A stretch of DNA of 64,000 nt, from sequence record MW269952.1. One strand, written 5' to 3'. The DNA is from Escherichia phage P479. The notes under the pieces are model-generated. The model searched no databases. It worked only from the letters and a program-made list of their open reading frames with translations, and had not been told where the DNA came from. This document shows, in pieces, positions 38,447 through 54,782 of this stretch. How positions within the stretch are numbered: position 1 is the first letter of the stretch; each line of letters starts with the position of its first letter. A program made the position numbers and the translations under genes.

Positions 38447-38695
38447 ATGTTATTAGTTAATGTGCATTACCAGTTCAAATCTGAAGAAGCTCTCCAAAAG
38501 TATGCTGATATTTGTGAGCATAATAAAAGAACAGCTGCCATTGTTGGTCTGAAGCCTTTTAAAATTTTGGATTGCTCCTTGAACAGAGCAAGGCGCTGGT
38601 GTAGTGTTGCCTGTCATGCTTCAGTTGAAGGGAATGATTATTTTTTCATTACTTTCAATGCACAAGATTTTCATTTAATTAATGAATTAAAATAG
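38447..38695 (+). CDS. Hypothetical protein
   Basis: 82 aa; first ORF of the 41-61 island. Confidence 0.4.
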   Translation: MLLVNVHYQFKSEEALQKYADICEHNKRTAAIVGLKPFKILDCSLNRARRWCSVACHASVEGNDYFFITFNAQDFHLINELK

Positions 38696-39082: not shown

Positions 39083-39108
39083 AAAGGGGCTTACAGCCCC
39101 TTTTTCTT
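39083..39108 (+). terminator. Rho-independent terminator
   Basis: AAAGGGGC-ttaca-GCCCCTTT followed by TTC. Confidence 0.65.
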
Positions 39109-39144
39109 ATGTTATAATGACCCTATCAACTACTGGAGAATAAA

Positions 39145-39462
39145 ATGAAAACCATTGATTGCAAGGCAGAATACAAAGTTTATTATCATGGGTCAAGCTC
39201 TAATGCTGGAATCCAAAATATGCTTTGTCCTCCTGATGCAACTGGTGTTCTGTCAGAAGTTGGGCGTAAGAAAAATTTAGGGCGTGTGTTTTTTACTGAA
39301 GATATTGGTTTGGCGCGTATCTATGCAGGAAGAGCAGCTCGCTCATATGGAGGAGAACCCCGTCTTTATCGTGTGATTGCACCTGTTGACGTGGTTTGTT
39401 TAAATGATACTAAAGGCGCAACAGTTTATCATGCTGCCTGGGCGTTTTGTGAGGAAATCTAA
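39145..39462 (+). CDS. Hypothetical protein with H-G-S motif (possible minimal NAD-utilising/ART-like fold)
   Basis: 105 aa; YYHGSSSNAGIQNML...GRVFFTEDIGLARIYAG is reminiscent of H-G-S ... aromatic signatures of H-Y-E ADP-ribosyltransferases or Tpt1; speculative. Confidence 0.35.
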   Translation: MKTIDCKAEYKVYYHGSSSNAGIQNMLCPPDATGVLSEVGRKKNLGRVFFTEDIGLARIYAGRAARSYGGEPRLYRVIAPVDVVCLNDTKGATVYHAAWAFCEEI

Positions 39463-39666
39463 ATGTATAAATTAGAGAACGTAGTGTTTATTGGTTGGTT
39501 TGAAAATGGCAATATGTTTACCAAAGAAACTGCGCTGGATGTCAGTGACAAAAATATGATTGAATGGGTTACAGTGCAGTATGCAGAAGTGAATAATGCG
39601 CTGGTTAAAGCCTTTGTTAATGATAATAAAGTTTTTGAATATGATTATCGTTCTAACGAAAAATAA
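39463..39666 (+). CDS. Hypothetical protein
   Basis: 67 aa. Confidence 0.35.
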   Translation: MYKLENVVFIGWFENGNMFTKETALDVSDKNMIEWVTVQYAEVNNALVKAFVNDNKVFEYDYRSNEK

Positions 39667-39726: not shown

Positions 39727-40020
39727 ATGAAAAAGTTATTAATCGCAGCAATTCTTACCGTAGCATCATGTGGTACAGCTCCAGTTACTGCTGGACTTGA
39801 TAAAGACCTTTGTGAGTGGTCTATGACCGCCGACCAGACTGATGTTGAACATCAGATTTATGCTGATATCATGAACATTACTAAACGTGACCGTCCAGAT
39901 ATGGTTAAAGAAGTATCTGACCAACTGGCTTCTGGTGACGTTATGCAGTATAACTATGTTCTGTATTGCGATGCTTCATTTGACAACAGCAAGATTGTTC
40001 AATGGGTTACAGGTGAATAA
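39727..40020 (+). CDS. Predicted lipoprotein
   Basis: 97 aa; signal peptide with lipobox TVASC; AGGAG Shine-Dalgarno. Confidence 0.5.
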   Translation: MKKLLIAAILTVASCGTAPVTAGLDKDLCEWSMTADQTDVEHQIYADIMNITKRDRPDMVKEVSDQLASGDVMQYNYVLYCDASFDNSKIVQWVTGE

Positions 40021-40021
40021 A

Positions 40022-40459
40022 ATGATTAACAGAACTTTAGTTATCAAAAAACTTCGTTGTAAAAATCAAAATGCACAAGCATACAGGATGTTTTGGAGCG
40101 ACGAAATTCAATACCTGGGTTATTTTCTTGTTGATAGTGATAATAGAATTACGTTTGCTCATAAACTTCTTAACAAAGAATTAAACCATTGGCAAGAACT
40201 TATTGCGGTCAAGTCTAAATTATTTTCGCGCAATACAATGCACCAATTGGTTTATTTTTTCGCTGACGGTATTCCCGACAAGGTTGAGTTTGACGGGTTT
40301 GAATTTAAAGACATCAACCCTGATAATGAATTGAATGGCAGTATTGTTAATATGGGTATCCCAGGTAAGTACATCAAAAACAGTCTTTTGAAACTTCTGG
40401 AAACCCCTGTTTATTCAGTTGATGACCAGATTTTTAATGCCTTCATGAAGCGAGATTAG
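40022..40459 (+). CDS. Hypothetical protein (C-terminal DDQIFNAFMKR tag)
   Basis: 146 aa from ATG 40022; 3' end carries a 36-bp direct repeat shared with the next gene. Confidence 0.4.
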   Translation: MINRTLVIKKLRCKNQNAQAYRMFWSDEIQYLGYFLVDSDNRITFAHKLLNKELNHWQELIAVKSKLFSRNTMHQLVYFFADGIPDKVEFDGFEFKDINPDNELNGSIVNMGIPGKYIKNSLLKLLETPVYSVDDQIFNAFMKRD

Positions 40460-40460
40460 T

Positions 40461-40817
40461 ATGAGTTATTATAATTTTCTGAATTTTGAACTGGCGAGCA
40501 ATAATGATGGTAATGCCCATTATGAATTCCGTGAGCCTCGGTTTAATCAGGCGATTGGTTATATTATCGTCAAAGATGATGTTATCATAAAGGCTCGCTC
40601 ATTCATGGTAATGAATGGACCTTATGAAGATACTCGCGGCTATCCATTTGATAAAAAGAATGTGCGCGATTGTGCAGCATGGATAACCGGAAACCCTGAA
40701 ATTGGGGTCATGATATCTACTGAAGCGAATGACATTCTGGAAGGGGTCGTCAAAGCTCAAGAACCGCCTACTGATATTGATGACCAGATTTTTAATGCCT
40801 TCATGAAGCGAGGTTGA
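40461..40817 (+). CDS. Hypothetical protein (C-terminal DDQIFNAFMKR tag)
   Basis: 118 aa; last 11 codons are a near-exact DNA repeat of the previous gene's 3' end. Confidence 0.4.
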   Translation: MSYYNFLNFELASNNDGNAHYEFREPRFNQAIGYIIVKDDVIIKARSFMVMNGPYEDTRGYPFDKKNVRDCAAWITGNPEIGVMISTEANDILEGVVKAQEPPTDIDDQIFNAFMKRG

Positions 40818-46533: not shown

Positions 46534-47094
46534 ATGAACATCATCAAATCTGATACCGAACCCAACCAGTTAAAATTTAGTGAAATGGAGATAGCTTCAT
46601 TATTTGAATGCCGCACATCAAAAGTCGATAAGACCTTGCATTCAAACGTTAACTCAATCATCAAGTCAAGGTTATCTGTACCTGATACAGTCTTGTATCG
46701 TGGGGTTACCCAGCAAGAGATTGATTTGTTAGATGAAGCAAAAGAATCAATGCAACCTTTTGAATTTGGAAGGATAACCTCCTTTACAGAAGACTATGGT
46801 ATTGCCAGGGATTTTGCTGCAATGGAATATGTGTCAAGGACTATCATCAGATTGAATCATACAAAAGCTTTTTGTTACCATGATGCGATGCGCAAAATCG
46901 CGCTTGATGTTCCACTGGAATTCTTCAATACAGCCTCTGGTTCCAAACAGGCAGCAACGTTAAGACGTGAAGAATACATGGACATGATTGATTCTGAGCT
47001 TGAATGGTTTGTTCCAGTTGACCAGAAATTCGTGGTGGTTGATGCTGGATTTGTTGGTGATTATTATGTTCTTGACTGTGTACAAGAGCAATAA
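46534..47094 (+). CDS. modB: Mono-ADP-ribosyltransferase, ModB-like (R-S-E class)
   Basis: 186 aa; LYRG, SFTEDYGIARDFA and ELEW fit the R, S-x-S, E-x-E triad; position matches T4 modB. Confidence 0.5.
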   Translation: MNIIKSDTEPNQLKFSEMEIASLFECRTSKVDKTLHSNVNSIIKSRLSVPDTVLYRGVTQQEIDLLDEAKESMQPFEFGRITSFTEDYGIARDFAAMEYVSRTIIRLNHTKAFCYHDAMRKIALDVPLEFFNTASGSKQAATLRREEYMDMIDSELEWFVPVDQKFVVVDAGFVGDYYVLDCVQEQ

Positions 47095-47138
47095 GACACG
47101 TTAAGATGTTCCTATCAACTACTGATGAGGATAATAAA

Positions 47139-47753
47139 ATGCTGTACGCAAGTCACCAATTAGCAGAGTACATCAATGCAGTTAAATGTGAATATTTTCG
47201 TGAAAATACCCAGATTGAAATTGATGAAATTTACTCTGAGTTGGAACAGAGTACACTCTGGCAGTGCATGGAAAATAAGCCAGACACTATCCAGGAAACT
47301 TTGAACAAAATTATTCGTAAGAATTTGACTTCTGTTGTGCCTGGTAAGTTATATCGCGGGATTTCTAAGAAAACTTTGGCATATCTTGAAACCGTAGGAT
47401 GTGTTGGTGCTACGATTGAGTTTGACCGTGTAATGAGTTTCTCCAAAGATTTCAGTGTTGCGCGTAACTTTGCTTCCTTTAGCTTCTATGGAACCAAAAA
47501 TATTTTCTGTATTAATGATGCACCATTCGCATTTGATTATCAGGAAGCGATTTTTAAAATGATTTGTGCGGCACCTCCTGAAGAGTTCAACGGACTATAT
47601 CCTGAAATAACTCGTTCTTCAAACTTGCAATTAGTAAATGATGAAGATGAGATGATGTTCCCTGCGGGAACTACGCTACGCGTGGACTCTATTGAGAGCA
47701 TTTATAGATGGGAAGACTATAAATTATGGAATCTTTCCGTTCTTTCTTACTGA
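47139..47753 (+). CDS. modA: Mono-ADP-ribosyltransferase, ModA-like (R-S-E class)
   Basis: 204 aa from ATG 47139; LYRG, SFSKDFSVARNFA and EDEMMF; paralogue of the upstream gene. Confidence 0.5.
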   Translation: MLYASHQLAEYINAVKCEYFRENTQIEIDEIYSELEQSTLWQCMENKPDTIQETLNKIIRKNLTSVVPGKLYRGISKKTLAYLETVGCVGATIEFDRVMSFSKDFSVARNFASFSFYGTKNIFCINDAPFAFDYQEAIFKMICAAPPEEFNGLYPEITRSSNLQLVNDEDEMMFPAGTTLRVDSIESIYRWEDYKLWNLSVLSY

Positions 47754-53981: not shown

Positions 53982-54782
53982 ATGATGATTAATGAAGTAT
54001 TCGGGATAATAAAAAATAAATTTCCTGATTATATTCCACCATCGAGTGGAAATAGTGGGATTTATATAATTTATAATTTAATATCTCAAAAATATTATAT
54101 AGGAAGTTCAAATGATTTTCATCGTAGAATTGCCACGCATTTTCGGAATTTATCCAAAGGTGTTGGCATAAACAGCCATTTACAGTTTGCATATGACAAA
54201 TACGGTAAAGAATCATTTGTATGCGAACTAATAGAAAATATAGAAGTTTATAATAAAAAATATTTCTTGAAAAGAGAAAGTTTCTGGATAACTGAATTAA
54301 ATTCTATCAAAAACGGTTATAATATAACGTTGGCGGATTTTGGTGGTGACACAATGTCCAATCATCCAAGAAAAGCGGAAATTAATTTACTTAAAGGCGA
54401 AGCCGTTAAAAAACGGAATAAACTGTTAGATAAAACCGAATATAATAGAATATATGGAACTGGTGTTAAAAGAAAGCCATACCCCGATGATTTTGGTTAT
54501 AATGTCTCCCTGCGTAAAGCAGGCGAAAATCATCATTTCTTTGGCAAACATCTTTCTCTTGAACACAAAGATAAATTATCAAAATTATTCTCTGGTGGTA
54601 AAAATCCCGAGGCTAAAACGTACTCTATAAATGGGGTCATATTCACAACCCGAAAAGAAGCCGCCGAAGTTCTTGGTATTAGTTATCCTACATTACGAAA
54701 ACGCTGCAAATCCGATGATGTAAAATGGTCCAGTTGGAAATGTTTAGGTTATACTAAAAATTTAGAGGTCAAAAATGATTAA
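53982..54782 (+). CDS. GIY-YIG homing endonuclease (Seg-like)
   Basis: 266 aa; GIYIIYN...YYIGSS GIY-YIG motif, catalytic R/E/N spacing like I-TevI; AT-rich coding; immediately upstream of gene 39. Confidence 0.75.
   Translation: MMINEVFGIIKNKFPDYIPPSSGNSGIYIIYNLISQKYYIGSSNDFHRRIATHFRNLSKGVGINSHLQFAYDKYGKESFVCELIENIEVYNKKYFLKRESFWITELNSIKNGYNITLADFGGDTMSNHPRKAEINLLKGEAVKKRNKLLDKTEYNRIYGTGVKRKPYPDDFGYNVSLRKAGENHHFFGKHLSLEHKDKLSKLFSGGKNPEAKTYSINGVIFTTRKEAAEVLGISYPTLRKRCKSDDVKWSSWKCLGYTKNLEVKND

Follow-up and report, generated by a model that had tools for sequence, protein, structure and literature searches.

A stretch of 64,000 nucleotides from Escherichia phage P479 (sequence record MW269952.1; the whole stretch is referred to below as the window) contains at positions 39145-39462 a small gene whose 105-amino-acid product is best read as a minimal, NAD+-binding protein with an ADP-ribosyltransferase (ART) fold, belonging to a phage branch of the lineage of the rifampin-resistance enzyme Arr, expressed from an early promoter together with the antitoxin Dmd, and directed at the host. 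We give this reading a probability of somewhat more than one half (about 0.55); within it we infer that the protein is catalytic, that it is made early and acts on the host, and what kind of acceptor it uses.

In the proposed mechanism, an early promoter of the sigma-70 type would drive synthesis of the ART and of Dmd immediately after infection. The H15-G16-S17 motif would bind NAD+, the aromatic pair F49/Y60 would sandwich its nicotinamide, and ADP-ribose (ADPr) would be transferred to a host target, which would favor take-over of the cell or blunt its defence. The ART would thus act as a host-directed effector in the manner of Alt, ModA and ModB, rather than as a self-poisoning toxin that depends on an antitoxin. 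Such a role is favored because the ART and Dmd are each common alone and because the ART module is also found in polyvalent proteins without an antitoxin.

Gene, fold and relationship to Arr

39145-39462, plus strand: open reading frame (ORF) for the 105-amino-acid minimal Arr-like ART-fold protein (PHROG 2110), recognized by its reading frame, profile match, fold and conservation

The coordinates that a preliminary description of this DNA had given for the ORF proved exact (plus strand, ATG start, TAA stop), and the two motifs quoted there were found at residues 13-27 (YYHGSSSNAGIQNML) and 46-62 (GRVFFTEDIGLARIYAG), their spacing of "about 30 residues" corresponding to the 31 residues from H15 to G46 when counted from the H-G-S motif. 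The product matches PHROG 2110 ("unknown function") from end to end (E 1e-58). The gene was detected by tblastn in 609 phage records, with Escherichia (215), Klebsiella (116), Acinetobacter (68), Aeromonas (62), Enterobacter (29), Shigella (17), Cronobacter (14) and Vibrio (14) among the hosts, plus others. Relative to genes with 77-80% nucleotide identity, its codon differences are synonymous over non-synonymous at a ratio of approximately 3:1. Because of the PHROG match, the 609 phage records and the synonymous bias, the ORF is a real gene and not a chance reading frame. In the close relative DCP80 the gene is unannotated (GenBank PQ671644, 58270-58584).

The structure of the protein was modeled with AlphaFold2 from an alignment of 30 relatives (A1), with a mean predicted local distance difference test score (pLDDT) of 85.4 and a predicted template modeling (TM) score of 0.77. 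The model contains strands at residues 13-18, 48-51, 72-78, 84-87, 94-97 and 100-104, a long helix at 54-68 and a short helix at 30-33, and its confidence drops at residues 1-10 and 31-50 (pLDDT 67-73 in the E38-L45 loop). Foldseek searches of the PDB with the model retrieved Arr (2HW2; E 0.011, probability 1.00, TM 0.58) and KptA (9LDI; E 0.014), and the fold matches also included the ART toxins DarT, ParT and RES; the predicted structure resembles the NAD+ lobe of Tpt1/KptA. In BFVD, a viral protein of 94 amino acids named "Ms Rifampin ADP-ribosyl transferase" was matched (E 3.9e-8, 34% identity, TM 0.72). The Arr and KptA matches support the earlier suggestion of an ART or Tpt1-like fold, and the model indicates that the protein has the split beta-sheet ART fold. 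This fold assignment is already in the literature, in some GenBank records labeled "(rifampin) ADP-ribosyl transferase" and in the 2022 survey of Iyer, Burroughs, Anantharaman and Aravind (PMC9503650).

The 105-residue sequence alone had zero matches in Pfam, NCBIfam or the PDB by phmmer, and the 30-sequence profile found nothing useful in the PDB. Close relatives reached Arr only below threshold, with four of the 30 matching PF12120 (best E 0.084) and two of the 30 matching NF033144 (best E 0.011). A hidden Markov model search with A1 against 1.84 billion representative proteins returned 250 relatives at E ≤ 1e-3, including 145 at E ≤ 1e-10, and many of these are modules within larger proteins of up to 3,924 amino acids. 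Intermediates that the phage profile found at E 1e-20 to 1e-29 exceed the Pfam Arr-ms gathering cut-off of 25 bits in the same region (P0131, 27.5; P0149, 29.4; P0163, 35.2), and 27 of the 50 multidomain homologues match Arr-ms at E ≤ 1e-4 (best 1.8e-9), the matches in homologues covering only positions 1-67 of the 99 in that profile.

Arr structures were reached only after the polyvalent-protein homologues had been added: the combined profile of 42 sequences (A2) detected Arr in the PDB by hmmsearch (2HW2/9IAF, E 9e-4; Arr-2 9IBA, E 0.03), and its hhalign comparison with 28 bona fide PF12120 proteins (A3) gave a probability of 96.2% and E 2.2e-9 over 73 columns, corresponding to residues 6-84 of the window protein. 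Homology to Arr is thus well supported, at the level of sequence profiles, in all but the C-terminal fifth of the protein, and the gene is best placed in a phage-specific branch of the Arr (PF12120) lineage, divergent from Arr proper.

The structural likeness to KptA would also fit an RNA 2'-phosphotransferase of the Tpt1/KptA type, which, alongside phage RNA ligases, would repair tRNAs cut by host anticodon nucleases, but we consider this function very unlikely. The hhalign probability was 5.5% for E. coli KptA versus 96.2% for Arr, and the KptA alignment, although sensible, was confined to KptA residues 97-154, the NAD lobe. Furthermore, none of the 30 + 50 family members searched matched PF01885 (PTS_2-RNA), and the N-terminal RNA-binding lobe and most of the R-H-R-R tetrad are absent, with 12 residues preceding strand beta1. 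Membership of the Arr-like module in the ART-PolyVal family was ruled out as well: the PF18760 (ART-PolyVal / Tox-ART-HYD2) matches in P0132, P0135 and P0154 lie elsewhere in these proteins and represent a separate, second ART domain.

The family appears to be overwhelmingly viral. A scan of approximately 186,000 species genomes with the pattern KKNLD[KR]VF returned three loci only, a rarity in cellular genomes that is suggestive, short of proof because the scan was limited to this pattern. A 91%-identical copy of the gene was seen in a "Flagellimonas marina" assembly (L065, NZ_JBHSCL010000010.1); this sequence measures 178,077 bp, as a T4-like phage genome would, and is probably such a genome inside a bacterial assembly, via contamination or co-culture. 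Standalone homologues of 143-148 amino acids were found in two metagenome-assembled genomes of Patescibacteria (candidate phyla radiation; L066 4902-5348 and L067 4923-5354), with about 45 extra N-terminal residues and a C-terminal helix, and one of them adjoins an rve-type transposase.

The predicted active site

Conservation was counted over 93 domain sequences, and the following elements of the gene were delimited.

39187-39195, plus strand: H15-G16-S17, the H-x-[S/T] NAD-binding motif in strand beta1, by conservation and alignment with Arr and KptA
39256-39279, plus strand: E38-V-G-R41-K-K-N44-L45, acidic and basic loop between beta1 and beta2, predicted active-site or substrate loop, by conservation
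39289-39297, plus strand: F49-F50-T51 in strand beta2, with F49 at the position of Arr Tyr49, by alignment and conservation
39322-39333, plus strand: Y60-A61-G62-R63 in the helix after beta2, with the second aromatic residue, by conservation and Arr alignment
39415-39426, plus strand: G91-A92-T93-V94, start of strand beta5, by strand order in the model and conservation (G91 93/93, V94 89/93)

The H-G-S motif on which the preliminary description had built its suggestion is conserved among the homologues: H15 and G16 are invariant, as are E38, F49, Y60 and G91, and position 17 is always threonine (77) or serine (16). Conservation of at least 90% was found at P29, P30, R41, K43, N44, L45, V48, T51, A57, I59, A61, R63, A64, G69, G70, V94 and A100. 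In the alignments, H15 corresponds to His19 of Arr-ms and to the HGT motif of KptA; F49 (93/93) and T51 (91/93) fall on "IYIT" of Arr, which includes Tyr49, and on "VHLS" of KptA; and Y60 (93/93), followed by A61 (92/93) and R63 (85/93), falls on a conserved Trp of Arr. Y60 sits 11 residues past F49; in diphtheria toxin (Y54/Y65) and PARP1 (Y896/Y907) the two residues that sandwich the nicotinamide are spaced identically. Because H15, F49 and Y60 align with Arr and the F49-Y60 spacing matches that of known pairs, the half of the ART motif that serves NAD binding is intact. The loop between these elements retains E38 in all 93 sequences, R41 in 91, K43 and N44 in 86 each and L45 in 85, and its topological equivalent in diphtheria toxin may be the active-site loop formed by residues 34-52 (PMC8120803).

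The catalytic half of the motif is not intact. Asp84 of the DDPN motif is required for Arr-ms activity, as are His19 and Tyr49 (PMC13246000; PMC8120803). Both Arr alignments end at "VEPxGxxE" ("VEPTGPFE", Arr E82), immediately before DDPN, and Asp84/DDPN has no apparent counterpart in the phage protein. The position that carries the catalytic Glu in H-Y-E and R-S-E ARTs probably corresponds, judging from the model, to residue 93, which is Thr in the window protein and Thr, Ser or Glu in 55, 18 and 17 sequences of the family, respectively (22, 14 and 3 of the standalone proteins, the Glu being mainly a feature of fused forms). No acid is invariant in residues 70-105 among the 93 sequences: position 82 (Asp here) is Asp or Glu in 59, position 88 (Asp) in 37 and position 103 (Glu) in 23, and position 87 is Asn in 65, Ser in 12 and Gln in 7. 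D82 and D88 were ruled out as catalytic residues on the ground that they are not conserved family-wide, and E103 was likewise rejected, as its near-invariance among close relatives does not extend to the family. The resemblance to H-Y-E-class ARTs that had been noted earlier holds for the NAD-binding H-x-[S/T] and aromatic elements, whereas Tyr has changed to Phe and the canonical Glu is missing.

It is conceivable, but in our judgment quite improbable, that the protein is a catalytically dead ART fold that binds NAD+ or an NAD-derived or ADPr immune signal as a sponge or decoy, or that inhibits a host protein. The lack of a conserved acid at either the canonical catalytic position or that of Arr Asp84 is in keeping with this explanation, as are the very small size of the protein and the location of its gene within a run of counter-defence genes, given that phage early regions often encode counter-defence proteins of the sponge type. 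However, the NAD-contacting residues, Glu38 and the basic loop are strictly conserved down to approximately 35% identity, and the module sits among enzymatic domains, beside NUDIX or 2H domains that would process its product. In addition, ARTs of the H-H-h clade (Tpt1, CC0527) likewise have no catalytic acid in the ART lobe, yet are active (PMC8120803).

We give next to no weight to a genuine Arr function, in which the protein would inactivate rifamycins and confer resistance on the infected host, although Arr is the closest family by sequence and some depositors label homologues "rifampin ADP-ribosyl transferase". The protein lacks both DDPN/Asp84 and helix alpha2, a wall of the rifampin cleft (PMC8120803, PMC13246000), resistance would be of little use to a virulent phage with a cycle of about 30 minutes, and Iyer et al. 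assign the true phage Arr genes (Microbacterium, Gordonia, PBC5) to a family of their own.

Expression, dmd linkage and genomic neighborhood

39083-39103, plus strand: terminator-like hairpin closing the upstream gene, AAAGGGGC-TTA-CAGCCCCTTT followed by a T run, with 9 pairs, 5 of them G-C
39090-39118, plus strand: promoter-like site of the sigma-70 / T4-early type, with -35 CTTACA (39090-39095), a 17-nucleotide spacer and a TG-extended -10 TATAAT (39113-39118)
39135-39138, plus strand: Shine-Dalgarno sequence GGAG, 6 nucleotides 5' of the ATG, read from the sequence and kept in related loci
39463-39666, plus strand: dmd, encoding the antitoxin against RnlA/LsoA (PF17587, E 1e-20; phrog_2102, E 1e-33)

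The promoter-like site has 10 of 12 consensus matches in addition to the TG. The upstream regions of 24 related loci contain GTTTAC or TTGAC, a gap of about 17 nucleotides and TGnTAnnAT, located at most about 60 nucleotides from the ATG. This arrangement is common to the loci of Tevenvirinae and of Slopekvirus-like, Acinetobacter and Aeromonas phages, and we take it to be of the T4 early-promoter (Pe) consensus type. From this likeness we infer that 39090-39118 acts as an early promoter and that the ART is expressed early. The hairpin has a predicted RNA folding energy of -20.4 kcal/mol (z = -2.7), and similar hairpins precede the ART gene in related loci. The TAA stop codon of the ART gene directly abuts the ATG of dmd, and because of this junction the two genes are probably co-transcribed and translationally coupled. 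In the close relative CJ20, dmd is unannotated (GenBank MT533174, 9691-9891).

The same arrangement in Escherichia, Shigella and Salmonella phages (PMC9503650, section 3.7.1) has been interpreted as a type II toxin-antitoxin pair, in which Dmd would neutralize the ART toxin and which could serve, for example, in superinfection exclusion or addiction (Iyer et al. 2022). The abutting junction, which is kept in 10 related loci, is in line with such a pair, and so is the fact that many ARTs are toxins with cognate antidotes, DarT, ParT and RES being among the fold matches. However, when Dmd was sought within 4 kb of the ART gene in 58 IMG/VR loci, it was found in only 10, always abutting, and the ART proteins of all 10 share at least 79% identity with that of the window. 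The downstream ORFs in the other loci are unrelated and encode a hydrophobic peptide of 55-60 amino acids (9 loci), a Cys-rich acidic peptide (3 loci), spackle-like lipoproteins and many singletons; in annotated Klebsiella, Acinetobacter, Aeromonas and Vibrio phages the downstream neighbor is likewise unrelated to dmd.

The distributions of the two genes also overlap only in part. Dmd was found in 797 phage records, 595 being from Escherichia and most from phages without the ART, with Klebsiella, Acinetobacter and Aeromonas not among the leading genera; at least 380 Escherichia phage records carry Dmd without the ART, and more than 350 records with the ART come from genera in which Dmd was not detected. 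Moreover, the established target of Dmd is RnlA/LsoA, the Arr-like module also occurs within virion polyvalent proteins that have no antitoxin, and a strictly lytic phage with an early promoter fits a host-directed effector better than a toxin-antitoxin pair. The Dmd linkage is limited to one sub-lineage, in which a toxin-antitoxin pair is still conceivable; overall, that interpretation is unlikely and ranks second to a host-directed effector.

The window belongs to a Gaprivervirus (SP18-like, Straboviridae) and is 97-99% identical to phages CJ20 and SP18 over this stretch. The local gene order is uvsX, gp40, gp41 helicase, a goF-like ORF, a hypothetical ORF, the ART gene, dmd, sp, two AdfA-like ORFs, small ORFs and gp61 primase. 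The gp41-gp61 interval, with its goF-like ORF, dmd, sp and AdfA-like ORFs, looks like a counter-defence island. The goF-like ORF (38447-38695, plus strand), just 3' of gp41, matches phrog_2980 ("goF mRNA metabolism modulator", E 4e-20); since the relative SP18 also carries a canonical goF near gene 39, it looks like a second goF paralogue. The adjoining ORFs at 39887-40459 and 40461-40817 (plus strand) share the C-terminal tail DDQIFNAFMKR[DG], and in the tail only, the latter has a faint, sub-threshold match to Pfam AdfA (anti-DarT factor A, E 3e-4). As listed, ORF 39887-40459 overlaps sp (39727-40020), so that it probably begins near 40020 instead, as SP18 gp036 does.

Of the other NAD-utilizing enzymes that had been proposed for the window, the Mod-like pair was confirmed by synteny with SP18 as modB/modA at 46534-47094 and 47106-47753, whereas no macro protein was found, either in a Pfam scan of some of the window ORFs or with a crude macro-motif pattern applied to ORFs of at least 90 amino acids, a non-exhaustive search. 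The early region also contains, at 53982-54782 (plus strand), a homing endonuclease of the GIY-YIG family that also has NUMOD3 and a DNA-binding domain of the I-TevI type; it is a mobile endonuclease, either free-standing or intron-type.

Possible acceptor, significance and comparison with known systems

The Arr-like module was found in proteins with portal, tape-measure, LPD23, ddrB-ParB, ART-PolyVal, CHAP, GNAT and Toprim domains, a repertoire typical of polyvalent proteins, which enter the virion and are injected along with the DNA (PMC5512222). Individual architectures include P0155 (954 amino acids), which combines the module with a lambda-type portal and a 2H/Acb1-like phosphoesterase; P0136 (3924 amino acids), in which it lies inside a tape-measure-like giant protein; and P0154 (1955 amino acids) and P0193 (310 amino acids), in which it stands directly upstream of a NUDIX domain, recognized in P0193 by the REx2EE motif. 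These four fusions suggest delivery in the virion and downstream processing of an ADPr-containing product.

The acceptor would more readily be a phosphate or hydroxyl on RNA or DNA, or on a nucleotide-like small molecule, than a protein. One reason is that Arr and Tpt1, the nearest families, modify non-protein acceptors, namely the C23 hydroxyl of rifampin and RNA 2'-phosphate or 5'-phosphate ends, respectively (PMC8120803). The absence of the canonical catalytic acid, as in the H-H-h clade, points in the same direction, and so does the presence of the invariant Glu38 and the conserved basic loop (R41, K42 and K43, plus R63) near the predicted active site. In addition, the module is fused to NUDIX (three homologues) and 2H phosphoesterase (one homologue) domains; enzymes of these two kinds act on ADPr derivatives or cyclic phosphates, and other viruses pair them with KptA (PMC9503650). 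The neighbors of the gene, the goF-like ORF and dmd, are RNA-centered. In phage Matisse, an RNA ligase 2 gene lies approximately 1.4 kb downstream of the ART gene.

A more specific proposal, which is speculative and which we consider doubtful in its full form, is that a minimal ART without the Glu ADP-ribosylates a non-protein acceptor (the phosphate end of an RNA or DNA, an immune signal of the nucleotide type or a toxin co-factor) as an immediate-early counter-defence, with the ART and Dmd of the Dmd-linked lineage both acting on one RNA-targeting defence axis (RnlA/LsoA type). Catalysis would then proceed via substrate assistance or Glu38 and not via an acid of strand 5.

Several considerations weigh against the reading of the protein as an NAD+-binding, early, host-directed ART of the Arr lineage. 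The window protein is below the thresholds of both the Pfam and the NCBIfam Arr models. The acid that would stabilize the oxocarbenium ion, Asp84 in Arr or Glu in H-Y-E ARTs, has no conserved counterpart, and for this reason the protein could be inactive or a mere binder of NAD or ADPr; the Tyr of the H-Y motif is, by alignment, replaced by Phe. E38 and the R41-N44 loop were modeled at low confidence, and their nearness to the NAD site is a prediction. The tight coupling to dmd in the lineage of the window is compatible with a toxin-antitoxin pair. The non-protein acceptor is the weakest step, its argument being circumstantial, and literature searches found no experimental study of any family member.

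ADP-ribosylation by phages is textbook knowledge through T4 Alt, ModA and ModB. If the reading is correct, many T4-like phages possess a fourth, unrelated ART, present in 609 genomes over Escherichia, Klebsiella, Acinetobacter, Aeromonas and Vibrio phages, and at 95-105 amino acids the family is among the smallest ART-fold proteins known; the window protein, as had been remarked earlier, is shorter than known members, by about 30-40 residues relative to Arr. Another phage ART is no surprise in kind, but this one merits attention as a very small, widespread protein that lacks the catalytic acid and is encoded among counter-defence genes. The Arr resistance enzyme would also be linked to a large phage-borne radiation, which fits the suggestion that rifampin is not the primary substrate of Arr (PMC8120803). 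Because the gene lies among dmd, sp and AdfA-like genes and the module occurs in injected polyvalent proteins, identification of the target could reveal a new host vulnerability or anti-defence mechanism.

Compared with Arr (PF12120; NF033144; PDB 2HW2, 9IAF, 9IBA), the phage protein ends at residue 105, after beta6, 30-40 residues before the C-terminus of Arr, and would therefore lack helix alpha2, one of the walls of the Arr rifampin cleft (PMC8120803). H19 of Arr is kept as H15, Tyr49 is the invariant Phe49, and Asp84/DDPN is without counterpart, whereas Arr has neither the invariant Glu38 nor the G-R-K-K-N-L loop of the phage family. Arr is a bacterial or integron resistance gene, and the phage family consists of presumed early genes or polyvalent virion modules. 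Tpt1/KptA (PF01885; PDB 9LD3, 8TFI, 7KW9, 6E3A) differs in its winged-helix RNA lobe and R-H-R-R tetrad, which are absent from the phage protein, and in its second motif residue, which is His instead of Phe. The phage protein is thus an Arr homologue set apart from Arr proper by Asp84/DDPN, alpha2 and a score below the cut-off, and from Tpt1 by the RNA lobe, the tetrad and the sequence. The anti-CRISPR mono-ART AcrIF11 (PDB 6KYF), which modifies a protein, the Csy complex (PMC8120803), showed no sequence similarity to it in any search, although the proposed host-directed effector would resemble AcrIF11, as it would Alt, ModA and ModB, in the logic of its action.

The p0068-like viral ART family of Iyer, Burroughs, Anantharaman and Aravind, one of the most frequent among viral ARTs, was described as a predicted ART adjoining Dmd in Escherichia, Shigella and Salmonella phages, and was placed by these authors in the H-Y-[EDQ] clade as a toxin of a toxin-antitoxin system, with RNA substrates as a speculation (PMC9503650). 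The gene for the 105-amino-acid protein almost certainly belongs to this family, to which it was matched by description only, because no other ART-fold gene adjoins dmd in these phages; its abundance (609 records) agrees with the description too. The present analysis differs from that description in that no conserved E/D/Q was found at the third position and that the Dmd linkage is confined to one sub-lineage.

T4 Alt, ModA and ModB belong to the R-S-E clade and not to H-[YF]-x, have no sequence similarity to the phage protein and are roughly twice its size. They nevertheless resemble the proposed effector as ARTs of T4-like phages that have early host targets and no antitoxin, and modA and modB are themselves present in the window.

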